A stretch of DNA of 64,000 bases, taken from contig CM060731.1 in the NCBI GenBank assembly GCA_030704615.1, forward strand, positions 24,180,001 through 24,244,000. Direction: 5' to 3'. A program made the position numbers and the translations under genes. Position 1 is the stretch's first letter. Each line of letters begins with the position of its first letter. This stretch comes from Takakia lepidozioides (taxonomy: Eukaryota; Plantae; Bryophyta). Below are positions 7,268 through 63,998 of this stretch, piece after piece. The notes under the pieces are model-generated. The model saw only the letters and a program-made list of their open reading frames with translations, had not been told where the DNA came from and did not search any database.

Positions 7268-7679
7268 CTGCAGCACGCAAAAACTCTTACTTACAAAGCT
7301 TGACACTGACACTCCCAGAAACTATCTCATGGCTCCTATTTAGTTTCAAAGAAAGACCTGTTCAAGCTCTTTGCTGCATATTTATAGGTTTTTCACTTCG
7401 GTCATGAAGGTGCCTGATTGTCACAAATATACCAACTACTAGCTGCAATAAATTACTGTCCATGTGCATTGAACACCGAGACACACAGCAGACAGCTTCG
7501 TTCATCTTCTCTAAAAATACGAGTCACTGTATCAGTTCATCACAACGGACATAAATGCTGGCATGAAATCATGTACAAAGTTTTACCTCTGTACACTTTC
7601 AAGTTCTTGAGATCCACAAAAAGGGTCTCCTCAGCCACCCCCAGTTTCTGCCAAGCCATCAAACATATCACACAACCCT

Positions 7680-22868: not shown

Positions 22869-23885
22869 CTATGGTTCGATGGTGGCCAAGACGGTGACAC
22901 CTGGAGGGAGTTGTAGTAGTGTGTGAGGGTTGTCAGGCGACCTTAGATGTGTGAGTACAAGGATTGTGAGGGCAGAGGGGGAGAAATGAACGATAGTGCG
23001 TGCCCATTGGAAAGCTTCTTGGATGATAAGGCCTGGTGGCGGATGGGCAAGGCCTTTGCCATACCATTTATGTTGGGTGGCAAGTCTAGTGGCTCCAAAT
23101 GTGCAGTCTCTAGGGTGGGGGCTGATATATGAGGAAAGCTCCAAAGAGCAAGTGAGTGGGCTTGAGTAGTAAGAGTGGGTGAGTTGGAACGAAGTAATGA
23201 GGGATTTGAGCATATTTGGGGGGATGGCAATGTGTGCATATGCTTGTGTTTGTCTATTGGTGGATTGTGGTTTCTTGGGGGGGGGGGGGTATTTCGGAGA
23301 TAACGCTCTAAGAAGAGCCAACAGATCTCTGTACGTAGCAAAATCCTATCGGGGTGGTTGCAGCTGGCATGTGCTTGAGGCTGAGGCTAGGTAGTTATTC
23401 CATAGTCAGGCGATTCGGTCGTTGGGAATTAGGCCGAGGTATCGGCCGTTAATGGCATAGATATTGGTCATGATATGGAAGGCAGAGCATATTATGGGGG
23501 AGTCGTGCATATTATCTTTGTCGGGATTACATTCAGTAATGGATATGTGTATGTTGGGGGCAGCTAACGGGTTGTGGATGTAGTGGGCGTCCGTGAGTTT
23601 GGTTTGGGAAGTATGTTGTTGGTGGATGTGCATGAGGTAGTTGGTGCTAGTATGTTTGTGGAATGCAGTGAGTAGGGCGAGATTATGAGCGGGTTCACAA
23701 TCGTCATGTGAGCCAAAAAGATCTTTTTCGGTTTGCCATGTATTATTGTCCGATGGGAAGCCAGCCCATTTGCATTAGTAATATGCGTCGAGCAAGTAGC
23801 CCCGAATGAGTCGATTGAGGAATGGGTTTTAACTCCAAGGATATAGCTTCAATGACAAAGGCATTGGGGTTATCGAGAGTTACCT
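22869..23885 (-). mobile_element. LINE fragment (copy 1): chromodomain plus PCIF1-like methyltransferase region
   Basis: CKWAGFPSDNTWQTEKDL (chromo), ITECNPDKD, FQLTHSYYSSPLTC..HPRDCTFGA..WYGKGLAHPP. Homologous to 41700-42560 and 57682-58880. Confidence 0.75.
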
Positions 23886-33984: not shown

Positions 33985-36429
33985 CGCCACCTTACTACCG
34001 AGCTATTCCTTCACCACCTATTTCACACATTCACTCTCTCTTCAGCTCTCCACCCTCTCATGTTAGTCTATCCATCCACAGATCTCTCTCAACCATCAGC
34101 GTTGAGGTTCCAAGTGCCTCGTGGAAAAGCTGGTTGAGGCACTGCGCCGACACTTGTATCCGACACAGACGTATTCGAATCAGAATCAGACGAGGAAAAG
34201 TAGCAAAAGTAGCAGGCACATATTGGTCTCTTCCTCAAGGCCAAGGTCGAAGCTTGACTACTTTCCACAAGTAGGGGTTGATATCAACTCTGTGGCTTTC
34301 AGATGGTAGGCATGCGCACTGAGGGCTGAGCCTTACTACACAGTGTCTGTAGTCTATACTGGGTTTATGGTGCAGTGATTGTTGACAACCTGGTGATCAA
34401 TTCTTGACTGGCACATTAGACCATTAGTGTAAAACAATTGATCATCTCCAAACTAAATGGAAGTCCTACCTTCACTGGAAGGGGAACCTTAAGGTGGGTC
34501 CACCCATCCCTGACAATGACCATCTCTGCTGATCGCCCCATTTTTGGAGGCTGCACAAATTTACAGTATGGGTCTGTATCCTTAAGTGTCCCCATCTATC
34601 CAAAGCGTTGAGTAGCACATGTCATATCAATGTTATATACTCTGTTCAACAACTAATCTCAACTTACGGGGATGAGGTGGGGATAAAGGAGCCAGTAGAG
34701 ATTCCCAGAGTATGGATTATGGATCAAGATGGATTATGATGTAGGATGCTTTCATAACAGTTAAGTTGAATGTTCCATTCTGCAGTTTGTGACTCCTGGA
34801 ATTTTACACAAAGGACTGTATCTGACAAGCTCACTTCTGAGGTAGACGGATAATGGAGATACAAAACACAATGAGGATCCCATGGAGGAGAAAGACACAA
34901 AGGAAGGGATAAAATTCTCGAAGGAGAACTTCCGGGATCTCTATATTGGAAGACAGATCATCAATGTCATCTAAGTCATCTAAGTCTAATCATTTTTTTC
35001 CGCAGAGCCTACGACCAGATTTGAACCGGAGACCTTTTCCATATGCAGTTGGCCCATGTGTGAAGAATTCAAATCTAAGACCAAGGGCAATTTCTTATGT
35101 ATCCAAGTGCATCTCCCATCTAGCAATCTTTATTCATGTATCCGAGTGCATTTCCCATGTAGAGGCCCGGCAAGTGATAAAAATGCTGCCTCAGCGGGCC
35201 TGCCTGCGTGGCCCCACCCCCGCCCTCCACCTCGGCCCCCCTCGCGGTACCGCCGGGGCCGCGGCCACCGCGCGAGCCGCCCCCACCCCCTCCTACCCTC
35301 CGCCAGCGCGCAGGGTCCATTGCTCTCCAAAACATTGTCCTACATTCTCACTAAGCATTACTGTATTGCACGCATTTATCATGCATGCCCCATGAATGCA
35401 AGTAAACAGCCATCGCATCATGACTTTGCCATCATACAGTCATGTACATGTGCACATGCCTCCTCATACACATGTGTAGCGTGTCATTCTTTGCTTTGTT
35501 TTACCCTCCGAGATTGCTTGACAGCGGGTTGGCTGCTCAGTCGAAGCTTCACAACGGGATCCTGCTCTCGCTGGAGCAACTTGCAGCAGAGCACACACAC
35601 AGGAAGGATATCGATAGTAGAGCCTGATTGTTTTTCTGTTTGTTAGATTATGCAAGGGGCAGGAGTAGACGGGTGTAGAGGGCGCTCTTGTTGAAACGCG
35701 CAATTCCAATGTTTACAATGGATGCCTGGATGGGTATGAGGCGCCTTCAACAATACTCCAGGCCCTCAAACAGAGTGGAAGCACAAGAAAAGCTTTGTCA
35801 TGAGTGCACCCGCAATCGTAGGTAAGAGTTGACCATTTAGCTCCATTGGCAGCAGCACAAATCTGATCAATAGCTCACATGGATATCAGCAAGGTAGGAA
35901 ACCACACCTTTCCTGAAGATGTCCTACAATGTACTGCATTTTCGAAGCTAGTACTCATATATGTTGTAATGCCCTCAACCCAGTGGTAGCAAATGAGAGT
36001 TATTTGCAGATACAAGTCAAAATCTACAATAATTTAGTAATCCAGCTTTGAAGGTGCACTGGGTTGTTACAGATCTGGTGTTGGATTGTGATGGCTGCAG
36101 GTTGCTTGAGCATATCTGGCAAACGGTGGCCAATGTATGCTTCGCAATTTACCTGCTTCCCCTATCCACTTCCAAATTTGTTGTTGGACATGCTGATTTA
36201 CCAATTTACTATCTCATACTTAATCAAAACGATAGGTTTTTAAGAGTTTAGATTTCCTGCAAGTTCATTTTGTTGGCTCCTTGATGGAATTTGTGTTACA
36301 CTTTCTTTCCCTCCGTTGTTGCCTGAGCATGACAATGTCCAGAGCCTCTTCTTTCATTTGTTGTCATGTGTAAATCTGGCATGGGCGATCCACGATGCTC
36401 CCGCACGTAACATACACGGCGCTGCACGG

Positions 36430-37740
36430 CACTCACATTTTCCGAAATGGATTCAAGCCTAACGTTTTGATGCACAACACCCTTGTCAACATGTATGTAA
36501 GTGCATGAGCATCGTGGATGCTCCTGACCAAGTGTTCAGTAGAATGCCTCAGCGATCTTCGATCAGGTGGAATATAATGTTGGCAGGATTTACCAAGCAT
36601 GGGTGTGGTAGGAATGCTTTGGAGACCTATGAGCAAATGATACGCTAAGGGGTGAAGCCCAACCACATTGCGTTTGTTTGTGTTTGCAATGCGTGTGCAA
36701 GCTTGAGAGCCCTGGAAAAGGGGAAAGAGGTCCATGGTGACATCGTCAACGCTGGAATTGTACCAGATGTCATTTTGAACACTGCCCTGGTGGACATGTA
36801 TGCCAAACAGTGTTTTTTTCTTCAAATTTTGAAAAGAACAGGACTGGCTACTTAGTTTTGCAGGAAATAGCCATATTTTCTGCTCATCCACTGAAATTTG
36901 GACAGAATCATCCTCCTCTGTACTTTCATCCATGTATATCATCCATATTAGGCGAATTCATTTGAGATTTATATTTGTTTTTGAGAATTTTGGCGATTTC
37001 ATCCATGAGAAAACAGGGAATTTACGACAGAATATTCGATTTTGATTTTTGAGGTCAAGAAAGTGCAAAAAATTTCCGGAAATAAAAACACTGATGCCAA
37101 ATGTGGGTGCATTAAGGATGCGAAAGGAGTTTTCAACACTATGGCTGAACGAGATGTGGTGTCATGGAACACAATGCTTGCAGGGTATACACAGTAGGGA
37201 CATGGTATGGAGGCTTTGGAGACCTATGATCAAATGATGGGGGAAGGGTGAAGCCCGACCACATCATGTTTGTGTGTATTTGCAATGCGTGTGCAAGCCT
37301 GGCAGCTCTGGAAAAGGGCAAAGAGGTCCATGGTGACATTGTCAGAGCTACAATTGTACCAAATGTCATTCTGAACAATACCCTCGTGGACATGTATGAA
37401 GGGAGTGTGGTAGTGTGGATCAACATCCAAAACCAGATAAGTCGTCCCAGCAAGGCAAGGATGTATGCATAATTTGTGCAAAGCATGGATAGCTGAATGA
37501 GCAGAAATAGAGTTTGGGTCTGGAATGAATACTTTTCTGACCCCAATGCTTGTGGTGTGCTTGTGCAAGTCTGACAGCCCTGGAAAAGGGCAAAGAGGTC
37601 TATGGTGACATCATCAAAGCCGGAATTGTACTTGGTGGGCATGTATGCCAAATGTGGTAGCATTGAGGATGCAAAGGGAGTAGTTGACAATATGGCTGAC
37701 GAGGTATGGTGTCGTGGAGGGTGATGATCGCAGGATATGA
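36430..37740 (+). pseudogene. PLS-type PPR pseudogene
   Basis: Frameshifted P/L/S motifs (GVKPNHIAFVCVCNACASLRALEKGKEVHG, NTALVDMYAKCG, RDVVSWN) with stops; interrupted by a hAT MITE. Confidence 0.9.
36808..37093. mobile_element. hAT-type MITE inserted in PPR pseudogene
   Basis: TIR cagtgttttt / aaaaacactg. 8-bp TSD atgccaaa at 36800-36807 and 37094-37101, splitting MYAK|CG. Confidence 0.9.
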
Positions 37741-41444: not shown

Positions 41445-42800
41445 TAGGTAAGTGAAGATGTAGTATGGGGGGGAGCGTCAAGTAGAGAGAGAGCGTCGTG
41501 GATGGACATGAGCTCAGAATGGTGGCAGGGCCAGGGAGCCGGAGGGAAATACTCCGACCGTTGCCGGTGTGATAAATTCCATATCCTACATTAGGTTTGG
41601 TGAGGGATCCATCAGTGTAGTGTGAGTTTGTCGGGGGATACTTGAGGGTGGTGTTTTGTTGATATATGGAGGGGATTGGGGGAAGGGGGGTTGCTGGTAT
41701 TACTTGGGGGGGGCGCGGTTATGCCATGCCCAGGCTTTGTTTGTTTTGACCCGGGGAAATGTGGTGGCTACGTGGGTGTGGAGGGGTGTAGCTGGGTAAT
41801 TGATGGTGACCTTCATTTTATGAGTTATGGTTAGCAACTGGTCTAGCTGGTGGAAAAAAGGTGTCGGTATGTTTGTATGAAGGGGGTTTTGGACATGTAG
41901 AATCAGAGTTATGGTAGGTTCTTTCCTCTTGAGATACTTGGGAAGAGGGGGGGTATGAGCGTACTTAAGCTGATTTGGGTCAATTGTGGCGAGTAGATTG
42001 ACCCCTTCCGGGAGTCGTAGGAGAGGGTGGGGGGTGCTAGGTGTATTTTGCTGTGTGAGGATGAGGATTGTGGAGGCAAGAAGAGAGGAGTGTGCTGCGA
42101 ATCTTGCCCATTGGAGAGCTTCATAAGCAAGAGGGCCAGAGGGGGGGTGGGCAAAGCCTTTACCCTCCCAGGTATGTTGGGTAGCATTACCGGTAGCTCC
42201 AAAGAGACAATCCCTGTGGTGCGGGCTGGAAAATGTGTGCAAGTCCATAGGACATGTCAGTGGATTGGAATAATATGAGTGAGTAAGCTCGAATGTATGG
42301 ATAAGCAAGGCGAGAATATCTTGGGGTATGGCATGGTGTGCGCATGCCATTTCTAGTCGGGTGAGGGATCGTGGCTTCTTGGGGGGGGTGTCTTTGAGGT
42401 AGCAGTCTACGAGCCAATATAATTCGGTCGCGAAGTCTTGTTTTGGGGGTTGTAAAGATTGTGGGTATGAGTTTGCAACATAATACTTCTCCCACAACCA
42501 TGTTAATCTGTTATTAGGAATGAGTCCAATGAAGCGGCCGTGTTGAGCGTAAATATTGGAAAGGGTTTAGGCATATGAGATAATCAGGGGGCTGGAACCG
42601 ACGCCATAGCAGTCTGTAGGGAGTTGGGTAAGAGCATTAGGAGAACTGGACCATAGGTTAAAGCGGCGGTTGAGGTGTTGGAGTTTGTGAGCTAGGATAG
42701 CTAGGTCGTCAGCGTATGCGGCAGCAAAGATTTCACTAGGGGGAGGTTTTATAATGATAGCTGAGATTGCCGCGTTCTAACCATCTTAGTAGTGGTTCTA
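41445..42800 (-). mobile_element. RandI/Dualen-like LINE fragment (copy 2): RT core, internal deletion, PCIF1-like domain, RNase H
   Basis: EPLLRWL at ~42778-42798, AYADDL at ~42705-42716, ORF 41700-42497 (MTase-like), then HYTDGS..VGYGIY RNase H at ~41575-41620. Confidence 0.8.
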
Positions 42801-45144: not shown

Positions 45145-48100
45145 ATGCCGGCCACAACCCCACGACGTTAATTCATGAAGTTCATGATCTTGTCATGAAC
45201 CGGGATTTTGTTCCTTCGGAGGGGGGTGCGTATCAAAGGGACCCAACCCCGTCTGAAATGGCGGTCTCCGATGATGAGGACAACAATGACAATGGAATTA
45301 TGCATGTGGCAGCAATGGAGGACCTCTTAATGCATCAGATGGTAGATGAGGACACAGACTCTTTGAATGACATAGAAAAGAAGCCAAAACTCCCCTATAC
45401 GAAGGGGCCAAAGTGAGTAGACTTTCAACCATCTTGTTATTACTGAATTTGCAAATCCGTTTTGGCATAAGCAATGTGGGTATGTCTGCCATAATGCGGA
45501 CTATTGCGGACTACATCCTTGCCCCACATTTGAAGCCGAGAATGCCACGATCAAGAAAAGAGGCAAGATCAGCCTTGGATGCTGTGGGGATGGGCTATAA
45601 GATTTTTCATGCATGTCCATGTGATAAAACCCTGTACTACTGAGAGGATGCGAAACTCACAAAGTGTCCAAAGTGCAACAAAGACCGATATCGGGATGAT
45701 GTTCAAGGGAAGAAAGCCCCGCGCAAGGTATACCTGCGCCACAAATACACTTGTATATTGCATTCTACCTTTTTGCAACCGCTACAAGATGTAAGGTTTT
45801 ACTTAGAGATATGAATGACACTGATTATGATATGGGGCCGACATGGGGATGGTGCCAGAAAATGCATTACTTTCCAATCATCCCGCGACTGCAGACACAT
45901 TACCGAAGCCCCTCATTGGCACAACTGATGAGATGGCACGCCTCGCATCGGAGCCCCCCGGGAAAGGTGTGCGGGCCACAAGATTCACAAGCATGGAGGC
46001 ATACTGAAGAGATGTGGCCTTTTCTCTTGGAGGACCCACGACATGTCCGCCTCGGCTTCTCCTCGGATGGGGTCAACCCATACTCTGTCCAGTCATGTAG
46101 TCATTCCACTTGGCCGATGACCATGGTGAATTACAACATCCCTCCGTATCTTTCAATAAAAAAAAGACCATATCATGTTGGCTGCCATTGTACCGGGTGA
46201 GTGTTCCCATTTCATGCTTATTATTTCTTTGGATTTTACATTAATCTTCTTCTCTTTGGCGCAATTCCGATGGAAGATTGATGAGTGACGTAATCATGTA
46301 GTAAGATGTGTCATTCATTATGAAGTATAATTAGCATGGTGGAGCATTGAAACAATTAATGGTGTGAATGTCTCATAGGGAAAAAACAAGTGAAAGACAT
46401 GGACACGTACTTGCGACCTCTAGTTGATGAACTGAATGAGTTATGGAGGGGGGTCCCGGCATTGGATGCTTCACTTGACCCTATGGCCGGACAATCTTTT
46501 CAGATGAGAGGCATCTTGCTTTGGACAATGCATGATTATCCAGGTATATTATGTTCCCCATGAGAAACCCGCGTACATTTACCTGTCAAGGGATTATTGA
46601 TGAGGATTGGGATTGATTGAAGTAGCGGCGACAGTCTTCTGCACCGTAGTGGGGTAGATGCACATGGAAACTTTTTGTCTTTCCTAATGTGGCGGAATGT
46701 CTACAGGACTTACTGTTTGCTCGGGGTTGAGCACTAAAGGGTACCACGCATGCCTGCATTGTGGTGATGAACTTGATGCACAAAGCTCCAGCAATCTTCA
46801 CAAGATGGTGTATCCCAACTACCGCAAGTTTCTTCCTATGAGCCATCATTGGAGAAGAAGAGACAAACACTTGTTTGATGGCAAAGTGGAGTTACGTCCC
46901 CCACCTGTGACACCATCCAGGCACTTTTGGGAAGACTGATGGAAGGAGGCCCATCCGGAGGGGTCCGGTGAAGTGGAGGTCCCCGGCATGAACCGGCTTT
47001 CAATCTTCTACGAGTTGTCATATTGGGCGGTACATATTCCACAAAAACACCATCAATATTGTTATGCATGCATGTGATATTGCATGTTTTGTATGATTTC
47101 CATTGTTACTTTCACGACAAAATAGACGTGTAAGAATTTGTGGGTGGGGATATGTGTAGGACCTGAAGATTCGTCATCTTCTAGATTCCATGCATATTGA
47201 GAAGAATGTTTGCTCGTCCCTTTTTCGTGTTCTTCATGGCACGCTGGCAATGAAGGGAGTGGCTGCGAAAGGAGATTCTCTCGGTGTTAGAAAGGAACTT
47301 GAGGAGCAGGGTCGCATGCCCCATCTATGGGCCGAAGAAAATGGTGTGGACCCAAAGGGTGTTGTACGGTGGAAGTATAGGCGTGCACCTTGGCAATGGA
47401 CAAAGGAGGAATACAAGAAAGTGATAGCCACCATAGGAGCTTTCCGAACACCAACTGGTTATGGGTCATCCCTCTATATGAAGTTCAACGAAGACGGGGT
47501 CCATGGTTTGAAGTCTCATGACTACCACAATCTATTGCAAGACATCTTGCCCATTGCAGTACGTGGGACATTGACTCCCGAGGTTCGCGAAACAGTCTAT
47601 AGATTGGGAGCATTGTTCCGGTGGATTTGCTCCAAAGAGCTGGAGGAAGCGGACTTTCCACGCATGAAGAAGGAGGCGGCGGTGGTCATGTGTATGTTGG
47701 AGATGCACCTTCCTCCCTCCTTCTTTGACATCCAAGTGCACTTGGTAGTGCACTTAGTGGAAGAGGCTTCGATTGCCGGCCCCATTCATTCTCGGTGGAT
47801 GTACTACCTTGAGCGATACATGAAGACTTTGAAAGCACATGTAAGACAAATGGCACACCCGGAGAGTAGCATGGCGGAGGGGTATACATTGCAAGAGGCT
47901 ATGTTCTACTGCATGGAGTACTTGGCAAGGGTGGATAAGGAAGCCCCTCCAATGTGGAAGGAAGATGAGGATGTACGAACCAATGACATCGTTTTGCCCA
48001 AAAATTCAAAGAGGGTAAAATTACCCATCATGGTGATTAACCAAGCGCATGAGTTCATACTGAAGAACACCCCATCCATACATGAGTGGGAGGCAAGATA

Positions 48101-49122
48101 CAATAACCTTGTTCAGCAACAACATGAGGAGACGGTTGCGTGGAGGCGGAACCATGCAAGGGCGATTACACGCGCTCCGCGAGCAAGGGGCCGGCGTAGG
48201 GAATGTGCCTTCACAAGAATTGCCCATGGAATTGCAGCCTCTAAGTTCATTCCGCCATTGGCTTCGGACTGAAGTAGAGGATAGCATTGAGAAAGGTGAG
48301 GTGGTTTCAGATTTGGTGCAAGACATTGCAAGGGGCCCCTCTCAATTTGCGACCTCATACACGGCGGTTTGGGTTCATGGTCGTCATTTCCGCATTCGTG
48401 CTCTTGACATGAAGCGCAAAACAACGTTTGATTCTGGCTTGTGTGCCTCATATTGGCAAGACTTCGTGTGGGGCAGGGGAGATACATGACCTACCATAAG
48501 CACACTCAACTACTTTGGAGAGCTTGAGAACATACTCCAACTTCAGTATACAAGGCACCAGCCTCTTATCTTCAAGGCAAGGTGATTCTAGCCACATCTT
48601 GTGGGGCCATCCGCAACAATAGTGGAAGACGAATGTGGTTTCATGCGCGTTAATACAGATAGGCTCGAGTCTACTCATCGTCCCTCCAATGAGCCTTTTT
48701 CATGGCCTTCGGACATGGAGCAAGTTTTCTTCTTCGGATCAGGAAATTGGAAGGTAGTTGTGCATGCTCAGCCAAGAGGAAGACATATCTATCATGGTCG
48801 GGGATCTACATGGGGCGAGGCAGATGCGGAGGAGGAAGAGACTGGTCATGATGACGCTGATGTTGGCCGAGGTTGGATAGAGGGGGTACAAGAGAATGAT
48901 GACGCCCCGGACAATGCATCCCGGACCCTATACGATGAGGCTCCATCAGATGCGGATGTTGGAGAAGAAGATGAAGACATGGTAATTGAAACCGAGGTGG
49001 AAGATGATTCAGATGTGCCTTTCGGTGACCAGGCCATTTATGACAATGACTCTAATGAGCAAGAAGACTTGCAGCTTGATGAGGACAAAGAAGCTCCGGA
49101 TGATGATTTTCAAGTTGATTAG
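45145..49122 (+). mobile_element. CACTA (En/Spm) TnpD/Tnp2-type transposase, intron-containing, with stops and frameshifts
   Basis: HACPCD..LY, DPRHVRLGFSSDGVNPY..HSTWP..NYNIPP, LLWTMHDYP, MHIEKNV, GLKSHDYH, PPSFFDIQVHL..H, RWMYYLER, F.A.W (DUF4216-like), EPFSWPSD.EQVFF, acidic tail. Confidence 0.92.
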
Positions 49123-50579
49123 ACACGTAATCAAAGCTACATAATAATTCTCGCACAGAATTGTACCCATCCCTTCGATTGATTGTACATGTACATGCAT
49201 GTAGCTTATTTCTATGATTGATTAATAAAAAATCCATGAAAAAAATCCTTTGTAGGTGTGGCGATCTAGGAATAATTCTAATGAAGTTGTGACTCGAAAA
49301 AGTGACTCTAGGATTGTTGAGTTTTTGTACGAGGGCAAGAAAACCGGAAACAAAATCAAGCTTCCTAACCGGTTAGAGAACCGGCATGGTGATTATAAGG
49401 GTGTTATACCCGGAGCAAGATCCGGAGCAAATGAGGATGGCGTAGAGGCGGTTCTAGATAATACAAGTGTAAGGGTTAGTGATGGTAGTATGAAATTACA
49501 ATGTTGGGGAGATTAGGTGCACAATATTAATGAGATTGTCCAAGTAGGAAATTAATTAGTTGGGCATTTGGCATTTGGCTAAGACAATAGTTGTAAGTTG
49601 TAAGCTTAGTGTATTAGAGGGGCAGAGAGATAGATGACAGGGTTGAACGTTTGAACTTTGAACCCGAGACCCACAACTAATATTCTAGCGGCTTATCACC
49701 AGGCCACAACCCTTTTGTGTATAGTTTTACACACATACACAAAAATGCTAGAAAAAATAAAAATAAATAAAAGTGGATGAATCCCATAACCGGTACCATG
49801 GAACTGGCATTTCTTAAGATGGCATAACCGGTAGATTGAGAACCGGACAAAAAAAAATCCGTGTGTTTATTGAGAACCTGTAACCGAGATGTTTTTCAAA
49901 CCTATTGGTATACCCTGCCCCAGCCATCCATTTTTTTCAAAGAATACGCCATAACCGGGACCGTGAGAGGGCTCAAAACATGGTACCCGGCCAACATTGG
50001 TCACAACCCCCTGCATTTACAATATCTATGATTGCGGATTTGTCCTTCATAATGTTTTTTTTTTAGCTCTATTTTGTTTTGTGAATGCAAACCCCAGACC
50101 ACTACATCCATAGAAAAAATTGGACCCAAAAATAATTAATTTAAAAATTAATTTAAAAAAAAAAAAAAAACAAGTTTCTTTCACTCACTATTGTGGAACT
50201 CTCTATGGAGAGTGCATGAAGTTGAAAAGAACTCAACTTGGGAGTGCAAATGAGGGAAGAAAATATGGTTTTCAGTCCAAATGATTTTTGTTCACTCCCA
50301 AAATTTGCACACGCATTGCAAACGCTGTCATTAAGCATACGGTTTGGGAACGGAATAAAATAAAATCATGTGCATGTGCAAAAAATCATCATCCCACCTG
50401 AGGGCACGAGGAGGAGGATGTGGCGGCGGCCGTCAAGTTTGTTGGGATCGGCACCAATGGAGGGTAGAAAGAACTCTGGCCTTGTTATACAACAACAGAG
50501 AATGAGCACTATAAAGATTGGAAGAAGGGGATCAATTGACCCTGGCCTCAACCATGACCTTTGCAAAAAGACACTAAAT

Positions 50580-51156
50580 AGGGCCACACTGCGACTCCCG
50601 GACGTCGCAGGCCCGTCGCATTACCGCTGACGGGCGACTTCTAGCAGTCGCAACCCCCGCGAGGTGGCGTGCCCTCGCCACATGGCGGCCAAGGGGAAAA
50701 TGGCATCCTTGCGACTCCCTAACATCGCGGCCCTGCAGGAGCGTCGCCCCAGCAGGCATGCGACTGCGGGGAATCGCAAGGTCCTCGCCATTGTGGCATT
50801 TCGGCGACGTCTGGACGTCGCAAACCCAACACGACCTGACTCAACCCTCCCACGTGCCTAAGTGTGAGGGGGTGTTGTTGCGATTCCCGACAATCACAGC
50901 CTTGCGGGAGCGTCGCAGAGGGTAAGTGCGACGCCCGGGCGTCGCAACCCCCAGCTCGCTGGCGGGTCATCCCCAACAGCAGCGACGTGGCGGAATCGCA
51001 AGCAGGCGAAGCGTCACCGGAGTGGCGCGGCGGCGACGGGCCGACGTCGCAATTTTCGGGCCGGGCGCCTGCGCGGCGCTGCAGTCGCAAGAGGGTCATT
51101 GTGTCCGGCGCGCCCGGGGTCCCGGCGTCGCTAACCCCCCCCTAAACATAGTAGTG
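50580..51156. mobile_element. CACTA 3' terminus with GCGAC/GTCGC subterminal repeats
   Basis: Ends ...ccccctaaacatagtagtg (reverse complement CACTACTA). Abuts a repeat also present at 35310-35450. Confidence 0.7.
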
Positions 51157-51428
51157 GGTCTCTTGCTCGCAAAAATACTACCACACATTGAAGTCAATAT
51201 TACTGTAATGCACGCATCCATCATGCATGCCCCATGAATGCAAGAAGTACATCCATCGCATCATGACTTTGCCATCATACAGTTCTGTATGTGTGAATAT
51301 GGCTCCTCGTATGCTCATATTAGAGACCATGAACATTCAAATTTGAAATTTGAAACAACATTCAATGTACCTCCAAAACGAATGGACGTCATTTAGCGGA
51401 TGATTGTTGTCATTCATGTGATTGACCA

Positions 51429-52360
51429 CACTACAAGAGATGAGCGTTTTTAGGACTACGGCTTTTGCGGAGTCATAAAAACGGCATTAGGTACATGACT
51501 ACAGAACGCTGAAATGCGTTGCAGTCATAGTTTTATTGTGCAACAATGGACTCTCCTTTGATATTTAAACTGTCATCTCTATCATTGATGACAACAAAAG
51601 CCTTGGATACTGCTATGTAGGATCTTCCTTCTTCTGTGCTTGCATCGGCTGAAGTTTGATTGACCTCACTACTACTTCCAGGATCGATCTCCCTCTTCTT
51701 CTTTGGACACTCCCTCTCCCAGTGGCCTCTCCACAATTATTACATCTGGTTCTCTTCTTAAGCTCACTGATTCTCTCATTGCGCTGCTTTTTCTGCTCCT
51801 CAGACAGTCACTCTTGCAGTCTACTTCCACCGGCTCGGTTATTTCCCTTTCTTGCGAAGAAAGCTCTATCTCTTTGCTCATCGGCATTCCCTCGTTCTTT
51901 ATTCAATGACTCTTCCTTCAGGAGCCTTGATGTTAGATTCTCCAATGTTCTATTCTCAGGAAGTACACTATCCCACGCTGATAAAAGATGTCTGTAACTA
52001 GGCGGCAGACTACACACAATCTTTGTAATCACGGATCTCTCTGAAGTGACATCTCCTAGGTCACTCAATCTATTTGCCATAGACTCAATGGTACTAATAT
52101 GAGTCGAAATATCATCGTTCTCTCTCATTCTGTACTCAAAGAACTTTTGTTGAAGGATATGGATGTGTAGTAATGGATATCACTACATGACTCCGGAAAG
52201 GTAGGGAGCATTGGTCAAACATTGTTGACCACGATGACAGGGATGGTTTATATGACTCGCGTCATATGGAGGACTACACGTGGATGAATTTTCCTAGAAT
52301 CGTATGACTTCATGACTAAATTTGGTTTTACAACTCTAATTTTACGACTGCGTCACTATA
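51429..52360 (+). mobile_element. CACTA 5' terminus (same family as 40079) interrupted by a Copia fragment
   Basis: cactacaagagatgagcgtttttaggactac; atgact repeats resume after ~52170. Confidence 0.65.
51535..52170 (-). mobile_element. Ty1/Copia gag fragment (UBN2 domain plus zinc knuckle)
   Basis: QQKFFEYRMRENDDISTHI..L.DLG..KIVCSLPPSY..WDS..L..RLLKEE and C..GHWERECPK. Confidence 0.85.
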
Positions 52361-52469: not shown

Positions 52470-55104
52470 CTAGAGCATGGAACGCGATGATCGCAGGATG
52501 TGCAGGGGCGTGGGATGGAGGCTTTGCAGACCTATTCTTGAGCAAATGATGCAAGAAGGGGCGAGGATAGGCACAGCGAGGCACTACAACACACTATGGT
52601 TTTCAGCACCGTCGGTATTTCACTATGAATTTCACTGTTTGCCACATTTCACTATTTCTAGCACCACGTAGTGAAATGTGTTGATATTAATAAAACAATT
52701 CACTACAACTATCAAAAGTTTCATTACAGAGTCCTTTATTCTACCACCCCTAAGTCAAACATTGACAGCTGTAATTCTGAAAATATAATTGATAATATAT
52801 ATTTCAATTTCAATAACTCAAAGTGAAAGTTTCTACTATAACTTTACTAAAGTGTTCAAACCAGCCCAATGGTAATATATTTTACTACCACTATCAAATG
52901 TTTGTCTACATGGTGTTTTGGTTTCCTAGACAAGCCTGGTAGGAGGATTTTAGCCTCTTACCTAGAATGAATCAAAGTGCAAAAGGTTAAAAAGTCAAAA
53001 AATTGCTAATAAGGTTGCCCATTAGGGTAATCGTGAACACAGAGGAGGGCTGGGACTTGGCGTTTTTTTGTCTCCTTCGCCACACCATGTAGCCGAGGGA
53101 TGGAATGCGATGATAGAGGATATGCAGGGGCGTGGGATGGAGGCGTTGAGCAAATGATGCGGGAAGGAGAAGAAGAGGAGGAGATGAGACGAGGATAAGC
53201 TCGCCGTTCTTGGGAGAGTCAGCTTGGTCTTAGTAGACCGTGTTTCAATCTCTGCCTACTCAGCTGCACCGTGGTGGTTCGATCTCACAGACCAATCCGA
53301 CATTACCTGACTACAGACACAAGCAGCACACACAAGAGGTCTTTTTGGGTTGATGGTCAGTCAAGTCATGACACAAGCTCAAGGACAATGTGGTGAGGGC
53401 ACCTTCTTCTTTGACCTATTTCAGCCTGTTTTGCCATCTCACATCATGTTTGTGTGCATTGCAATGCTTGTGCAAGCCTGGCAGCCCTTGAGAAGGGCAA
53501 AGAGGTGCATGGGGATATCATCGAAGCTGGAATTGTACCTAATGTTATTCTAAACACTGCCCTGGCAGCTCTGGAAAAGGGGAAGGAGGTCCATGGTGAC
53601 ATCTTTCAGAGCTGGAATTGTACCAAATGTCATTCTAACAATACCCTAGTGGACATGTATGCAAAATGTGGGTGCATCGAGGATGCAAATGGAGTGTTCA
53701 ACACTATGGCTGAACGAGATGTGGTATCGTGGAGTGTGATGCTTGCGGGGTATGCACAACAGGGACGTGGGATGGAGGCTTTGGAGACCTATGAGCAAAT
53801 GATGGGGGAAGGGGTTCAGCCCGACCACATCATGTTTGTGTGCATTGCAGGCCTGGCAGCCTTGATTTAAATCAGGCGCCTCAACCATGACCACAACTTC
53901 TAAAAGAGGATCAAGAGAGGGAGTCCATAATGCCTCTTCTGGCTCTTCTGGGCATGTGAAGATTCTTTGTGAGGCAGGCAGACTGAAAGAGGCTCTACAA
54001 CCTTTAAAGCAAGGAGCATTTCAGCAGATTCAGATATGTATGTCTGTCTCTTGCTTAAGTGCATCAAAATGAAGGGTCTGGAAGCTGGAAAGCAGGTGCA
54101 CACTCACATTATCCAAAGTGGATTCACGCCAAGTGTTTTTCTCCTCAACACCTTGTGAACATGTATGTTAAGTGCAGGAGCATCATGAATGCACACCGAG
54201 TGTTCAACGGAATGCCTCAACGAACTTTGATCATGTTGAATATAATGTTGGCAGGATTTAACATGGGTGTGGTAGGAATGCTTTGGAGACCTACAAAGCA
54301 AATGTTGCGCGAAGGGCCGGTGAAGCCCAACCACATCACCTTTGTTGGTGTTTGCAATGCGTGTGCAAGCCTGGGAGCCCTAGAAAAGGGGAAAGAGGTC
54401 CATGCTGACATCGTCAAAGCTGGAATTGTACCAAATGTCATCCTAAACTGACAGGTTTGCCAAATGTGGGTGCATTCAGGATGCGAAGGGAGTATTTCAC
54501 ACTCTGGCTGAACGAGATGTGGTGTCGTGGAATGCGATGCTTGCAGGGTATGCACATCAGGGGCACGGGATGGAGGCTTTGGAGACCTATGAGCAAATGA
54601 TGTGGGAAGGGTGAAGCCCGACCACATCAGGTTTGTGTGCGTTTGCAGTGCGTGTGCAAGCCTGGCAGCCTTGGAAAAGGGCAAAGAGGTGCATGGTTGC
54701 ATCGCCAAAGCTAGAGTTGTACCAGATGTGATTCCCTGTGGATCAATAGCTACAAGAAAAACTGCATGGGTAGATGGTCAACTAAAGGCTGCAGCTACAG
54801 CGGCATAGTTTATAATACCAGGCACCTCAACCATGACCACAGCTTCTGAAAGAGGATCAAGAGAGGGAGTCCACAATGCCTCTTTTGGCTGCACTTCTAG
54901 GCATGTGAAGATGCTTTGTGGCAGGCAGACTGACAGAGGCTCTATAGACTTTTGACCAATGAGGCATTTTAGCAGATTCAGGTACGTATGTCTGTCTCTT
55001 GCTTAAGTGCATCAAGATTGAAGGTCTGGAAGCTGGAAAGCAGGTGCACACTCACATTATCCAAAGCGGATTCATGCCAAATGTTTTTCTACTCAACACC
55101 CTAA
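52470..55104 (+). pseudogene. Cluster of PLS PPR pseudogene fragments, including two duplicated N-termini (~53873 and ~54819)
   Basis: LCEAGRLKEAL (cf. LCKAGQLKEAL of the intact gene); repeated CNACASLAALEKGKEVHG, DMYAKCG, RDVVSW motifs with frameshifts and stops. Confidence 0.9.
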
Positions 55105-56515: not shown

Positions 56516-57448
56516 CACTACAACAAATGGGGGGGGGGGGTTTGCGTCGCCAGCCGCGCCCCCACGCCCCGCGCGGCGCTGAGCCCGCGACGCCGAGCCC
56601 GCGGCACTTCTTTGCGACGCCGGATCCCCCGCTGCGACACCATTACGACGCCCAACCATCGTAAGGTGGCATGAAGGGGGAAAGAGGACCCTCGCTGCGA
56701 CGGATTTTTTTTCTTGCGACGCCCCGGCGTCGGAAATCCCAAAAAATAAAAATAAAAAATAAAATTGGACGTTACGACGCTTCGGCGTCGCAAAAACGTC
56801 ACCAAGGGTGCCCCAGCGTCTCTGCGACGCCAGGGCGTCGCAACAACATCACCATAGTGGGAGTTTGTTTTTTTTTTTTGGAAACTTTGCGGCCCTCAAC
56901 TTCACAAAAGCGTCGTTGGGGGCGCCCCGCGCTGGGATGCCCAACGTTGCGACGCCAGGGGGTCGCAATGGTGTTGTGGTCAGCTTAGATCATCACAAGG
57001 ACATTGCTTGGGGCGCCTGACGGTGGGAGGGTGCAACAACGACGACGACGCTGGGACTGGGACTGGGGCTGGGTACTAAGGCTGTGGAGGTTGCAACTCC
57101 CCGGCGTCACAAGAGAGACCCCCTTAGAAGGAACTTGAAGGAAATCTCTATATGTATATATATATATATTTAGATTGCTTTTGTGATACATAGATGTAAC
57201 GTAGGTGTGTTGGTTAGTTTGTAGTGTCTTAAAAATGTTATAACGTAGAGGTCTTAGGTTCAAGTATGCATTGCATGATATATGTAGAACAATGAACATA
57301 TCGTTATTAGACAGAACCGGAGTCAATGGTCAACAAGTTTTTGAAATTCAAATTTTCCCGCCTAAATCCAAATGTACCCCCTTAAATTGTGACGTCCGGG
57401 TGTCGCACTTTGCGACCCCCGGACGGTGCTAATTCTGCATTGCAGAAT

Positions 57449-57487
<39 letters not shown>

Positions 57488-57662
57488 CCGACGCCCCGAC
57501 GTCAGAAATCGCGGTTTCGCCTATTTGTGAACCCCATTGGTCGCAAATTTGCGACGTTTTTTTGGCGACGCCCGGACGTCGTAAATTTGGTTCTTCCCCC
57601 CCTGCCCGAAAAAGGCTGTTTTACGACGCCGCAGCGTTGGAAACCCCCCCCCCCCCTTGGTG
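56516..57662. mobile_element. Non-autonomous CACTA element with GCGACGCC repeats
   Basis: Starts cactacaacaaatggggg and ends cccccttggtg (degenerate ttgtagtg). 3-bp TSD tta on both sides. Confidence 0.75.
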
Positions 57663-60600
57663 TTAGGACCTCCCAGACCTCATGTACGCATGGCTGTGCA
57701 CCCCACCCACATCCACTCCCCTACATCCTCTCCCCACTCAGACATGGACTCCATCCACACCCCCCCCGGCTCACCTCCATACGCCCTCCCTTACGCAAAC
57801 TACTTCCACCCCCGCTCCGGCCTCTTCCCCCTCATGCTCATCCGGTACTCTCGCAACTCACCATGCTAACCCAGATAACCCGGACGCATATGTTTTTGAC
57901 GCCATCCTAGGTATTAAAACTCAAACATCTACAGACTCATATGGGGCCACATATGTTGATAAATATTACCTCTGCCAATGGGCTGGCTTCACAGCTGATG
58001 ATAATTCATGGAAAATCGAGGACGACCTCTTTGGCTCACGTGACGACTGTGACCCCGCCCACAATCTCATACTCCTCACCGCATTCCACAAACGCACTAA
58101 CACTAACTACCTTATGCATACCCACCAACAACATATCTCCCAAAACCAACCCAAAGATGTCCGTCACGTACACCAACCGCTTACCGCTCCCAACATACAC
58201 ATACACATCACTGAATGCAACCCGGATAAGGACATCCTGCACACCTCCCCCACAATTTGTCAAGGCCCTCGTATGTCCACCATCTACACCTTCAATGGTC
58301 GTTTCCTCAGCCTCATTTCCAATGACAGACTAGCATGGCTCTGGGCCAAATACTCTACTTCCTCCCCCTGTGACACTCTAATCCACCCACCCCGCCAAGA
58401 CTTTGCTACCAAACTCAGCTGGCTTGCTACCCGCTACCTCCAAGATACCCCTGCCAAAAAACCCCGTTCCCTGACAAAACAGTCACAAGTCTTTGTTCAT
58501 AATACTATCCCCCGGGATATTTTCTCTCTGCTCATAACCACTTTCCAACTTACTCATTCATATTATTCCAGTCCACTTACATGCCTGATGGGTATCACAA
58601 CTTTTATCTGCCCCCACCCTCGAGACTGCATTTTTGGCGCCACCGGACATGCCACCCAGCGCGCATGGGCGGGGAGTGGACTTGCCTACCCCCCCTCAGG
58701 CCCCTCATGCATGAGGCCCTTCAATGGGCCCGTATAGCCGCACAATCCTCCCCATCAAACGTTACGATCTTGTTACAATCCTTCTACTCACTCATCAAAA
58801 GCTACCCAACAGTCCCCACCCCTCCCTACAATTCCCACCCGGCGTAACACTTCTCGCCGCTATCGAACCAAATATCCAAAATGTCATAGTTAACAAGAAG
58901 TAGGTAATTCTAGTTAACCATGACTAAAACCATGACAACTGTCGTGCACCTAAGCATCGTGCAACAACATACATCGCTGTCCATCACACATCCTAAGCAT
59001 ACAATCCTAGAAAGCTATGCCACAATCGCCCCCCTAGTTGGTGATTAGGTCCCTCTAACACCAGATAGCTGACAAGTATCCACCCTAATAAGATCACTGC
59101 TCGGTCTTCAATCGCACAAGTCCCAGTATCTGAAATCAATAGATCAAGAGGCCGGGTACAAAAGTAGCCTCATCGTTACTCGCCTTCCTACAATCCATGG
59201 CTTCAATTGGGTGTCCATGGCATTGAACTCTCGTTAGCTAGACCTTTGGATCACTAGTCAACCTCGCCACTGTCATGCCCAACTACCTTTGTCCAAGGCA
59301 TTGTGGACACAACCATTCTCCACTATGAACCTCCTCAAGTGGCGGTATCAAGCATCCCATGTGCTACCCCCTTGAGCATTTGTTACACACCAACATGGTC
59401 GCGGCACCACCAGCATGCCCATATAGCATGCAATGCAACCCTACAGGTACCATTGCAAGGTTGGGATCTATCCTCCCATCCACATGTGGAAGGTGACATG
59501 GCACACAATTGCGCACATGGTCCTTCCATACCATGCCATCTAGAATCAACATTCCTGAAGGCAACACCTCCCGGACCCTTAGAATCACACGACCTGCTGT
59601 GACATCCAAGGTCGTAGGCGCTGTCTGCTGCAGATACACATAGTTCCCAAGATGGAAATGCCGAACACCTGGCCGATATCCCCCTTCCCGTATAGTGGCG
59701 TACCTCAATGTGTCTCGGTGTTGGGCAATAGCAAGGTTCTCAAAAGCCATAGGCATGACTCTCTTGAACAACTCTGCCCGTTGGGCACATTCTTGTGTCC
59801 ACACATCCGGATCATCAAGGTTGAGGACTACTGTAGTCTCCCTGCGAATAGATGCAGACAAATCTGGCTCTCGGCCAAAGAGAAAGAAATAAGGCGAGAA
59901 CGAGGCAAGTGATGCTTGCTTGCTAAACCTGTAACCCATGGCCAACCAAGGTAGCTGAAGGTCCTAATCTCCCAAGTGTCCATTCTGCAAGCCATACTTG
60001 CGCAAGCCTTGCTTGACTATTTGCACAACCCTCTCGGCCAAGCCATCAGCCTCGGGATGATCCCGAGAAGTAGTGCAGTGATTTATCAAGGCTTGGTCAC
60101 ACAAAGCCTGAAACTCCCCCAAGAACTCTCTCCCCTGGTCTGTGAGTACCTCGGCTGGAGCACCAAATTGGCTAAGCACTCGATCTAAGAATGCATACGC
60201 AGCCCCATCACTTGCCTAGTCAGGCAATGCCACCAGTTCAATCCATTTGGAGAATATTCCACTATCACCAACACATACTTGTTATGGCGAATCGTTAGTG
60301 GTAATGGGGCCTGCAAAGTCAAGACTCCAACGATAGCCCAAACCCATAATGGGTAAATGATGTAATTATGGAGTAGGTGCATTGAAAGAAGCCCGCACTC
60401 TATCATACACCATGCACCTTGTCACTAAGTGTTGCACATCCGTGTGCATGCCCCGCCACCAATACTGTCCTTGCAGCAAACTATGAGTGCGCCGCATCCC
60501 AAAATGTCCCAACTCCTCATGGGCATGGCGTACCAATCACGCTCATTGTGTTGGATGAGGCACAATCCTCACTCGTCCATCATCCCATACTCGGAGTAGG

Positions 60601-62273
60601 TGAGTCCCATCCCACTTGAATCTCTTGGCTCGTTGTAGGATCCGATCTCTCTCCTTAGCAGTCACACTGGCTGCTGTCTTTCTAGTACAAAGGTAGGCCA
60701 ACACTGCTGCATCTTCATGTACATCCTTAGTACCACCAAGCTCCTTACTGATCTTTGGATCGTCATGCACACTATCTCTATGACCAATTGCATGGGATGG
60801 ACCAGCTTGAGCTCCCATTGCTAGAATGCATAAAAAGGCAGATGCGTACTATCCTGGCACCATCTCCTCGTCCGTCTCACCATGCCAACGAGCTCTTGTA
60901 TCATCAAGCTCACTTGTGCATGGATTGCGACTCAATCCATCCGCATCCTGGTTGACTATTCCGGCTCGATGCACCACCTAGAAGTTGTACTCTTGAAGCA
61001 TAAGTGCCCACCGTGCAAGCTTCTATGTAAGCTTGTCTGACTCCATCAACCACTTCAATGGTTGGTGATTCGTGACAAGGGTGAAGAGATTGCCATAGAG
61101 GTAGCATTTAAAATGTGCCACTGCCCATACTGCAGCTAGACACTCCTCTTCATAGGAACTATACTTCGCCTCAACATCATTGTTCGAGCGGCTAGCATAT
61201 GCCACTACAAACTCTCTTCCCTCATCATCCACCTGTGTGAGCACTGCTCCAATCCCCAACATATTCCAATCCGTATGTAGCTAGAAAGACCGCCCCCGAA
61301 TAGGCCGCCTCAGAATAGGCGCAGAAGTCAATCGAGCCTTGAGTTCCTCAAAGGCTTCCTCCTGCTTTTCCTCCCACTGCCACTCCTGACCCACCTTGGT
61401 CAACTTGGTAAGAGCTTTTGCAATGCTGCTAAATCCCTTGACAAACCGTCGATAGTAGTTTGCCAACCCCATGAAAAGCACGAACTCTGCTAACATCGAT
61501 AGGGCGTGGAATGCGTGCAATGGCCTCCATCTACTCCCCGCCTGACAACTCCACCAATCCAGCTTCGATCAACTCCATAGTCCGTGGCTAGATCAAAGAC
61601 CTCTTCATATCACTATACCTGTAGGTTCTTCGAAAAATTGGCGTGTCACTTGCCAAATCAATACGAATCTCCTGGCCCTTCAAACTCCCCAAATCCTTCA
61701 AAACGAAGGCAAAGCAATTTCTATAAGCCCTTAGAACTCGTTGGATCCTCCGCCTCTCTCCTCTGGTGACTGTAGGTCCAACATCTGGTTCCCAGTTGTC
61801 CTCAGTGACTGTAACCTTGGGTACACCAGGCTTGGAAGTAGGAGACGCATCCTTTGGTTGCTAGATAACAACCTTTTGGGTTTTATCTGCCCACCCTGAC
61901 CGTGGCGTAGCCTCCACTTGCTCCGCCTACCTTGAGAACATCCTCTGGGGAAGAAACATTCTCAACCTCTTCAAAAACATTGGTCACCTTGGCCTCCAAC
62001 TGATTCTCAATGTATGGCTCTCCCCACTCCTCATACTGCTGCTTGAGAGATCCAATGACTCTCTCTTTGCGCATCTCATCCCACATCTGCCATAGGTGTT
62101 TGCACCCCATGGTCCTGTGCTCGCCCCCACTCACTGCCTCCACCGTCCCGGTTGGCAGAGATGGTGTAATATCCAATGGAAGTGCAGACGTAGCCACCAA
62201 TGCTTGCAATCTCCGTTGCTCAGCCATGCACAAGCCAATAACCCATGTTGAGATCCATTGCCTGACCCAACAC

Positions 62274-63998
62274 CTAGCGTCGTGATGCCTTTGACAGAGC
62301 TGGCACAGCTGTAGTGCCCATGGCAAACCCCATTGCCCGCTCTCGCTCATCCACACTAGGCTCCACCAATTGTTGTAGCGCATTGTCCCAAATCAACCCT
62401 GGACCATTGTCTCGAAAAGCATGAGACGAGAGAAAACTCATGAGTGTAGGCAAGGCCGCACGTGGTTGCCCCACTCGATTGACCTCCGCCAAAGGTGGAC
62501 GATCATCATGTCGCACTCTCTTTGGTTGCCTCTTTTGGTCCAAAATGCCCTCAACCGTGAGATTGGGTGGCCGTTGAATGGAATCGTATGCTCTCTTGAG
62601 CAGCTCTGGTGGTGCAAGATTGGTCCACCACAATTGAGATCGATGCGCTCGTGATCCCACCGCTGCTGCATCCAATAGCACCGTCGATCCAATCCAAGAC
62701 CGCACCTGATGCACACTGGCCATAACCCTGGCCCGAGAGTCCCTCATAAGATGAACATTCTCCAAGATATCATGCAAGTCATTCCCATGACCTGCGGGAG
62801 AGTGTCCTTGACAAGGCAATCCAGCTATCACCAAGTCAATGGCACCATGCCGGTCCAAATCATCCGCCCCCAATAAGGTAATGTTTGCTGGCAAGGCCTT
62901 TTGATACCCTTGAATTGCTGAGAGAGGGGTAGTTGCAGGATTGGGTGGATCAAAAGCGGCACATGTTGAGTCCATTGGAAGTCCATGGATTTTTTTTTTT
63001 TTGACTCTATTGCTTTCAGTTTATTTAAAAATATATATATAGTAATATACTTATAACATTTTTAGTAAAGAGTCCATCCTCAAAGATTGAAAACATTATT
63101 TACTAGATATTTTAATCTTTAATTTGAAAAAAAACATTTAGACATCAAAATCTAGAGTTTACAACCACTTGTCCATATACCACCTAGCACCTCTAGATTA
63201 TAGGTTTGTATGCATTTTTAGTAAAAGAAGACACCTCAAAAACCCAAAACATAAGATGCTATGGACTAGAGCAAATCAACCTGTTTTTAGGTGCAAAATA
63301 GTCCATAATTCTCAATTCCTAAGATAATTAGTCCACATAAAAGTGGATTTGGGTTGGATTTAAATATGGCACCCCTAGTGTGTTTTCCTTTGTGTCATTG
63401 TATGAGTGTACATGATGTTTTTTCAGTCCATAAGATTTTATGTGTAACATCTGCAGTCCACAATAATCAACTTTAAAAGTCCATGGTTCTTTGGTACATG
63501 ATTGTTTTTGCAATCTAACAATTGGTACACATATCTATTGTAGTTAGAAACCCTACACTATATAAATTTAGATGAAATATTGAGTTGTTGAACAAATATG
63601 GGTAAAACCATGTAGGGAGGTCACTGCAGAAACTGCCATGTTACACAAAAACTGAGACACCCAATCCTGCAAATATCCAGAGGCAACAACTCAGGATATC
63701 GGTGTGTGAGCAAGGCGATGTGATACATAGAAATACGCCGAGCTATCTGATCCTTCTCCATATACAAGTACTTGCGTACTTTAATCCCTGCTTGCAACAC
63801 TCCTGCAAGCCGAGTGCTCATGCCTCCAAACATGTCTAGCAAACAAATCCCTGAGTCAAGTGGTTGCCAGGTAATGGGCATTGTGTCCAAAGGAGCTAAC
63901 TGAGGAAGTCCGGGTGATGTCACTGAACTCCCCTCACTCACCAATGGATAGGCCTCCTGCCATGCTTGGTGCGCACACTCGCTTGCTACTCGATGCAA
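62274..63998 (-). pseudogene. Cytosine-C5 DNA methyltransferase domain within Gypsy pol
   Basis: Motif I LLDMFGG, motif II YLYMEKD, motif IV DLVIAGLPCQGHS, motif VI LENV, motif VIII AHRSQLWWTN, and ERERAMGF (motif IX-like). Confidence 0.85.
62927..63678. mobile_element. AT-rich TIR element inserted in the DNMT domain
   Basis: TIR gggtagttgcaggattgggtg / cacccaatcctgcaaatatcc with 4-bp TSD agag. Removal restores the frame YPELLPL-SAIQG. Confidence 0.85.

Follow-up and report, generated by a model that had tools for sequence, protein, structure and literature searches.

A DNMT3-type cytosine methyltransferase closes the gag-protease frame of a Ty3/Gypsy family of seed-free land plants with a dead copy in Takakia lepidozioides

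Cytosine methyltransferase motifs ahead of retrotransposon genes in Takakia lepidozioides raise the question of whether the methyltransferase belongs to the retrotransposon family or is a stray fragment, and what it does for the element. The whole stretch of DNA analysed, referred to as the window, is 64,000 nucleotides long (contig CM060731.1, positions 24,180,001 to 24,244,000), and the initial annotation had described in it a Gypsy retrotransposon carrying a C5 cytosine methyltransferase (DNMT) in pol. The comparison with related loci and proteins indicated that the Takakia copy is a dead member of a high-copy Ty3/Gypsy family of seed-free land plants, and that the domain closing the gag-protease frame of this family is a conserved DNMT3-type cytosine methyltransferase. 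The description was right about the Gypsy identity and about a real, family-wide DNMT, but in land plants this domain closes the gag-protease frame before a stop codon.

The Takakia element lies on the minus strand, with the DNMT3-like domain at 63860-62253 (Table 1). Motifs I, II, IV with an intact Pro-Cys, VI and VIII were all present, as described, 5' of RNase H and integrase on the same strand. The RT-RNase H-integrase order in the window is that of Ty3/Gypsy elements, and the complete order of protease, RT, RNase H and DDE integrase was found in the related locus L029, which is unbroken, with 1369 codons followed by TAG CAG TTA and then by 1047 codons. The gag, protease and 5' repeat of the Takakia copy are situated past the window end, gag and protease being presumed from the relatives. 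In comparison with related loci, about 570 bp of the RT core was lost near 61533-61543 in the Takakia copy. The PHD finger, degenerate here, is intact in L029 (E 2.6e-10). Repeat A of the Takakia copy is cut where a neighbouring repeat element begins, the neighbour ending near 58870.

Table 1. Parts of the Takakia element in the order of its reading (positions in the window)
Feature	Position	Strand	Basis and remarks
Protease-methyltransferase linker	63861..63998	-	Open frame passing the window end; the relatives in Sphagnum, Marchantia and Calypogeia have this linker too
DNMT3-like domain, 5' part (motifs I and II)	63679..63860	-	Translation; alignment with intact relatives
TIR insertion, 752 bp, non-coding	62927..63678	.	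Inverted arms; 4-bp duplication; contigs without the insertion
DNMT3-like domain, 3' part	62253..62926	-	Translation, Pfam, homology, alignment
Post-DNMT spacer	61864..62252	-	Three-frame translation; two deletions that shift the frame, near 62248 and 61928
Conserved stop codon, in frame, in a type I readthrough context (TAG CAA CCA)	61855..61863	-	Comparison with related loci
Reverse transcriptase start	61544..61854	-	Gaps versus related loci
RT connection and RNase H, with stops	60921..61532	-	Pfam RT_RNaseH E 2e-26; 76% identical to RNase H of L029
DDE integrase with stops: zinc finger, core and C-terminal part	59500..60569	-	Pfam rve E 5e-6; 69% identical to integrase of L029
Degenerate PHD finger, pol end	59298..59432	-	Cys/His pattern in translation
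Polypurine tract	59026..59035	-	Related loci have it in the same place, ahead of repeat B
Repeat B, 85 bp, TG...CA	58940..59024	-	3' end is the conserved CACGACA of L001, L029 and L043
Internal repeat A, start only (TG...)	58871..58937	-	CA-NN-TG junction, as in three other subfamilies

Three decayed copies of a repeat frame were also detected in the window, at 57667-58737 (+), 22872-23874 (-) and 41703-42566 (-), each with a weak PCIF1_WW-like (adenine methyltransferase-like) match under the cut-off (E about 2e-4 to 3e-4). The frame at 57667-58737 contained a weak chromodomain, and the one at 41703-42566 is preceded by an RT fragment resembling that of LINEs and followed by what looks like the start of an RNase H. 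The Atlas gave a chromodomain lead only (0.75). Judging from these matches, the repeat may be a LINE that carries both an N6-adenine methyltransferase and a chromodomain; the available text of a 2026 adenine-methyltransferase preprint had no occurrence of 'PCIF1'. An intact PPR-E-DYW gene (4955-7321, minus strand) occurred within the same 64 kb as several decayed PPR copies (36400-37700, 53400-55100), which suggests a large editing-factor family in the host. PPR-E-DYW editing factors are a land-plant trait, and the intact gene marks the host as a land plant, a bryophyte being likely from the nearest relatives; a transporter exon used as a query to place the host gave no match. An element of about 1.15 kb at 56518-57666 had 33-nt inverted ends made of G/C runs and ten internal CG-rich 21-nt repeats, and GC-rich repeats resembling it were located at 10012-11415 and 50400-51300. 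Remnants of CACTA transposase (Transposase_21, DUF4218) and a piece of Copia gag were detected at 45700-49119 (+) and 51811-52179 (-).

The methyltransferase domain of the Takakia copy has been damaged in several ways. Motif I (LLDMFGG) was located near 63848-63822 and the Pro-Cys of motif IV at 62816-62811, with the Trp ahead of it changed to Leu. The alignment with relatives revealed that 26 codons were lost between motifs IV and VI, at 62768/62769; the ENV of motif VI lies at 62762-62754, and in motif VIII (62642-62634) the second Arg is replaced by Gln (62636-62634). The copy had been called dead on account of this deletion and the Arg to Gln change, and both were seen. Motif X (62273-62253) is located behind a private stop (62276-62274), just past the coordinate from which the initial annotation started. 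That annotation mentioned neither motif X nor the Trp to Leu change, the loss of RT core, the PHD finger, the stop ahead of RT or the split repeats. The domain is moreover divided by the 752-bp insertion, a later, separate mobile element of 32% GC with 26-nt arms that are 85% complementary, flanked by a 4-bp duplication (62923-62926 / 63679-63682). Insertion and one duplication together make 756 nt, that is 252 codons, and, as had been proposed, their removal leaves both DNMT halves in one frame. The termini of the insertion are G-rich and its CG o/e is 0.05.

Contigs joining 62922 to 63679 without the insertion were identified in runs X1 (6), X2 (5) and X5 (2), with 0 in X8, a putative RNA run made up of diverged pieces. 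Loose ends at the insertion border in X8 and with other flanks suggest further insertion sites. At motif IV (Trp), at motif VIII (Arg) and at the position of the private stop, the conserved codon was read in 96-100% of the summed X1 depth, a figure based on 3,247 X1 contigs over the DNMT-spacer stretch and on depth, which is not equivalent to copy number. Loose ends of other copies revealed the segment lost in the Takakia copy, and, as seen from loose ends and indel rows, the two spacer deletions were not common to other copies. Since other copies in the same organism are free of the insertion and keep these residues, the lesions are confined to this dead copy, which contributes nothing past what the family shows. 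None of 40 listed rows, out of 48, touched the stop at 61863-61861. The contexts of 40 listed differences (CG 4, CHG 9, CHH 16, other 11) fit ordinary decay and are uninformative on the enzyme.

In the DNA runs from the same organism, 21,830 contigs of X1 fell on the element and all of its 30 bins were covered, every DNMT bin included; cluster representatives at E <= 0.001 numbered 754. Relatives of the family were found in Marchantia, Calypogeia, Sphagnum fallax, Closterium, Klebsormidium nitens, Scenedesmus and Cymbomonas, i.e., in liverworts, a moss and algae. Vascular plants gave no match among the species-labelled hits, which were a minority of all hits, and relatives were found neither in a metagenome scan with a single protein query nor in a viral-contig scan. 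The best-matching proteins of Marchantia and Calypogeia were 55-63% identical to the 3' half of the Takakia DNMT, with E values as low as 3e-82. These gag-protease-DNMT proteins carry the label 'hypothetical' or only a domain name.

The Pfam DNA_methylase search, which the initial annotation had named as a check, was weak on the Takakia copy, with 16.6 bits for the 3' half (E 0.0054, cut-off 22) and nothing for the 5' half, but exceeded the cut-off for intact relatives (51.1 bits for L029 and 49.8 bits for L021). No significant match was obtained in a PDB sequence search with each DNMT half alone. The weak score and the several lesions might be taken as signs of a host DNMT3 fragment that fell by chance into this one element. 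Such an origin is refuted, and practically no chance is left to it, as the domain holds the same place in liverwort, moss and algal relatives, is under purifying selection in the family, and is impaired in the Takakia copy by lesions of its own.

Among 67 rows selected for near-full domains, the catalytic Cys was kept in 66 and the Glu in all 67, the two motif VIII Arg residues being kept in 66/67 and 67/67; in the algal rows the Pro of Pro-Cys was Glu in 25 of 42. The dN/dS ratio was 0.13 for L029/L031 (dS 0.26) and 0.08-0.22 across 11 between-subfamily pairs with finite dS, a range that leaves out 9 of 21 DNMT pairs with saturated dS, versus 0.93 for two dead sister copies. The DNMT domain is thus a part of the family maintained by purifying selection. 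Motifs I, IV, VI, VIII and X follow one another in unpermuted order, while DRM is permuted. The best profile matches were DNMT3A (103 bits), DRM (56) and M.HhaI (41), and the L021 domain model (pLDDT 96) had DNMT3A/B/C on top of the Foldseek results (TM 0.72). From the profile and fold searches, the domain is predicted to be nearer DNMT3 than DRM, DNMT2 or the bacterial enzymes.

In land-plant members, an in-frame stop closes the reading frame of gag, protease and DNMT some 100-135 codons past motif X, and RT resumes in the same frame. The RT start was matched in 38 of 72 loci, nearly all of them from one Sphagnum-type family with duplicates included. An in-frame stop within 40 codons was present in 35 of these 38 loci, followed by CARYY in 34 of the 35, and was absent in three. 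The full CARYYA was found in five of seven subfamilies, namely the window, L021, L032, L029/L031 (UAG) and L041 (UAA); it was absent in L001-type loci and L034, and the most abundant, Sphagnum-type family has CAA CCC, lacking the last base. Depending on the subfamily, the six bases code for Gln-Pro, Gln-Leu or Gln-Ser, and three different dipeptides imply a constraint on the bases. The background frequency of CARYYA was 3 in 1045 in-frame codon pairs of L029 pol. Marchantia P0003 and P0004 and Calypogeia P0005, known as proteins alone, end 98-100 residues past motif X, which is the place of the stop in the loci.

UAG-CARYYA is the type I readthrough signal of plants, known from tobamovirus (available text of PMC5382211). 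The window and four other subfamilies share with it the same stop and six-base context, but here the signal stands in a retrotransposon, between the gag-protease-DNMT frame and RT. Judging from this context, the conserved stop is likely to be leaky, and we infer that in land-plant elements the DNMT would be as plentiful as Gag, with RT and integrase arising by readthrough alone. Because the domain precedes this stop, it would be made in bulk with the capsid protein in active copies. In algal members (Klebsormidium, Closterium and several more), DNMT and RT are in one predicted protein, which means that the lineage does not need bulk DNMT expression.

The ends of the family are unusual as well. 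Repeats A and B each run from TG to CA, with the polypurine tract ahead of B, and instead of two identical terminal LTRs the arrangement is A-coding-B or A-coding-B-A-B. The 3' ends of related loci were A-coding-B in 11 of 16 distinct cases and continued as B-A(-B) in the other 5, and B preceded A in 0 of 18 distinct 5' ends. Full split repeats were observed in L030, L060 and L041, and B with the start of A in the window. Exact 4-bp duplications flanked seven of the nine relatives with both ends, the remaining two matching at 3 of 4 positions. The B-A junction, CACGACA-NN-TGT, is common to four subfamilies, the window included, and the CG within CACGACA is kept in all four, while CG is depleted elsewhere. 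This one-sidedness is not explained by a simple two-LTR-circle model, under which 5' ends of the form A-B-A should be as frequent as 3' ends of the form B-A-B (0/18 versus 5/16 seen); short-read assembly and B-B recombination may also have shaped the end counts. An unusual route of integration is suggested by such split ends occurring alongside ordinary integrase signatures. In related loci beyond the window, with the RNA 5' end predicted, the sequence after A was complementary to a stretch about 30 nt past the TATA (11 of 11 in L046, 13 of 13 in L029), with different sequences in the two. In the L001-type loci, this self-priming match was located about 30 nt past the TATA in 6 of 12, and the remaining 6 had it at a second site.

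Two domain orders were distinguished in the proteins, with the DNMT between protease and RT in those with streptophyte names and between RNase H and integrase in those with chlorophyte names. The latter order was seen in P0126, P0134, L071:3-5564 and about 50 further proteins, the named ones being from chlorophytes, and the literature search yielded no description of it. A land-plant group that includes the window and a group of chlorophyte type appeared in both the DNMT and the pol (RT/RH/IN) trees. The more thorough DNMT tree comprised 27 of 68 rows, the large DNMT tree being a quick tree only; it supported the land-plant group at 100/99 and the chlorophyte-type group at 100/100. The best tree placed land plants and Closterium against Klebsormidium and the chlorophytes at 64/53. 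The kinship with the charophyte (Klebsormidium) Gypsy element, proposed initially, was borne out: the window and K. nitens elements are homologous in DNMT and pol and fall in separate groups of trees that are unrooted, with no host-DNMT3 or non-DNMT plant Gypsy outgroup. The pol tree was rooted on one long animal branch, which makes its rooting unreliable.

These trees are compatible with one old capture followed by vertical descent. The vertical retention suggested in the initial annotation agrees with them to that extent, but the deep splits at 64/53 and the pairing of Marchantia with Sphagnum-type L001 (96/93), and not with Calypogeia, a liverwort, weaken it. The same observations, together with the departure of the RT tree with the long animal outgroup from host order, speak for horizontal transfer among algae and bryophytes, and not descent, as the way in which the land-plant elements spread. 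The DNMT and RT/RH/IN trees agree on the land-plant and chlorophyte-type groups, however, the synonymous sites are near saturation between subfamilies, and old paralogous subfamilies would account equally well for the mismatch. Horizontal transfer is therefore rather unlikely, though it is compatible with the best explanation of the function given below. A broader scenario may be put forward tentatively, with slightly better chances and still doubtful: a green-plant-wide Gypsy lineage that captured DNMT3 before the chlorophyte/streptophyte split, shifted it between two places in the polyprotein, acquired in land plants a leaky stop loading the particles with DNMT, and would use cDNA methylation and internal CA-NN-TG integration. 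If true, such integration would be a replication route not described for LTR retrotransposons with a DDE integrase.

As for the function, the best reading, which we consider probable, is that the DNMT is packaged and serves as a de novo methyltransferase for the cDNA of its own element. In active copies, DNMT would be made at capsid-protein levels and packaged in the particle, and readthrough would give a minor Gag-PR-DNMT-RT-RH-IN-PHD product. The protease would free the DNMT inside the particle, where the enzyme would likely methylate the cDNA ahead of integration, either shielding it or making the new copy pass as host-like chromatin. Reverse transcription would be self-primed, as in Tf1. 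The normal LTR would correspond to B+A, with the A-B junction representing joined ends, and the DDE integrase would act at the internal CA-NN-TG between B and A and not at the cDNA ends. Methylation of its own cDNA had been suggested for the element from the outset, but no footprint of it was detected, the CG depletion being no stronger than in the host gene of the window (codon-junction CG 0.31 of expectation in the element pol versus 0.25 in the PPR-DYW gene). Other points that count against this reading are the negative yeast result for the Klebsormidium domain given below, the incomplete CARYYA of the most abundant family and the three loci lacking the stop, the single DNMT-RT protein of algal members, the one-sided ends and the L001-type loci that match at a second site.

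Bryophytes have host methyltransferases of their own, which argues against an active DNMT working mainly in trans on integrated copies or host DNA, where it would limit copy number or tune silencing. The fusion with Gag and protease points instead to the particle, and the DNMT side of the stop is without a targeting domain. Still, a DNMT encoded ahead of the stop should greatly outnumber RT and integrase, beyond what two cDNAs in a particle would call for, and a slowing role was raised by the authors of PMC5890265 (in its available text); on balance, we regard action in trans as unlikely. The domain might otherwise be kept for DNA or RNA binding, or act on the CG of CACGACA to set which B-A junction the integrase cuts. 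The preservation of this CG in the four subfamilies and the one-sided end structures described above would suit such a role, as would the Klebsormidium domain, which was without de novo methylation activity in yeast, a result deemed inconclusive by the authors (PMC5890265, available text). The conservation of all catalytic residues counts against a pure binding role, no tie between methylation and site choice was seen, and the replacement of Pro by Glu in the algal rows indicates a site that differs between clades, all of which makes binding or junction choice quite improbable. The packaged methyltransferase acting on cDNA is thus preferred.

The role of retrotransposon-borne cytosine methyltransferases has been open since 2018 because their hosts are hard to work with. 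Marchantia is a model for which methylation mutants exist, and its unlabelled genes for gag-protease-DNMT proteins, such as Mp4g09160 and Mp8g17980, would make the question directly testable. Such genes may also inflate DNMT counts and contribute to bryophyte methylation.

Among the known systems, REM1 is a PHD-bearing Chlamydomonas Gypsy element with unusual repeats. Gypsy-7a_cRei, another such element of Chlamydomonas, resembles the Takakia family in the PHD finger in pol (PMC9940879), and the self-priming Gypsy elements Tf1 and Tcn1 in a primer-binding site complementary to the predicted RNA 5' end (PMC7175516, PMC6317226), for which the Takakia family has a candidate counterpart; they differ in that the available texts of these three papers report no methyltransferase. 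In the plant LTR survey PMC6317226, the accessible text contains 0 occurrences of 'methyltransferase', 'PHD' and 'Marchantia'. The EpiLTRs / DAM-LTRs are likewise LTR elements with methyltransferase and chromatin-reader domains, but, according to the available part of bioRxiv 10.64898/2026.05.21.726589, their DNMT is sister to DNMT4 and accompanied by an adenine methyltransferase and a chromodomain, whereas the Takakia family has a DNMT3-type domain and a PHD finger. SymbioDIRS-Dnmt3, with de novo CG methylation demonstrated in yeast, shares the DNMT3-type domain in a retroelement polyprotein and split direct repeats; it differs in its tyrosine recombinase in place of a DDE integrase, its dinoflagellate host and a capture described as separate (PMC5890265, available text). 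A DIRS/PAT-like identity of the present family found no backing in L029, which gave no tyrosine recombinase match and had an rve integrase instead.

The closest system is KnitGypsy-Dnmt3 from Klebsormidium nitens (de Mendoza et al. 2018, PMC5890265), a kind named 'Gypsy-DNMT3' of streptophytes in bioRxiv 10.64898/2026.05.21.726589, both as far as the available texts go. In the parts of PMC5890265 available, the DNMT capture is regarded as confined to the lineage of K. nitens, and the word 'Marchantia' occurs neither in the text nor in the text supplements; according to the accessible part of the review PMC6338049, land plants such as tracheophytes lack transposons of this kind, and the later papers, in the text available, mention only 'streptophytes' as hosts. 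A land-plant description or the readthrough was not found in the literature search, and bryophyte sequences may be held in subscription journals, in supplementary figures (the DNMT trees of PMC12344493 and PMC5890265) or in preprint supplements. KnitGypsy-Dnmt3 and the Takakia family have in common the Gypsy domains, an unpermuted DNMT3-type domain between protease and RT (KFL_009030040), purifying selection and, by the Fig. 4c legend of PMC5890265, a DIRS-like repeat arrangement. The Takakia family differs in its land-plant host, in the C-terminal PHD finger and in the DNMT that ends the gag-protease frame before a readthrough-type stop and enters the Pol frame only via readthrough. The Takakia family is therefore a variant of KnitGypsy-Dnmt3, new in its land-plant host and in the DNMT placed before the stop.
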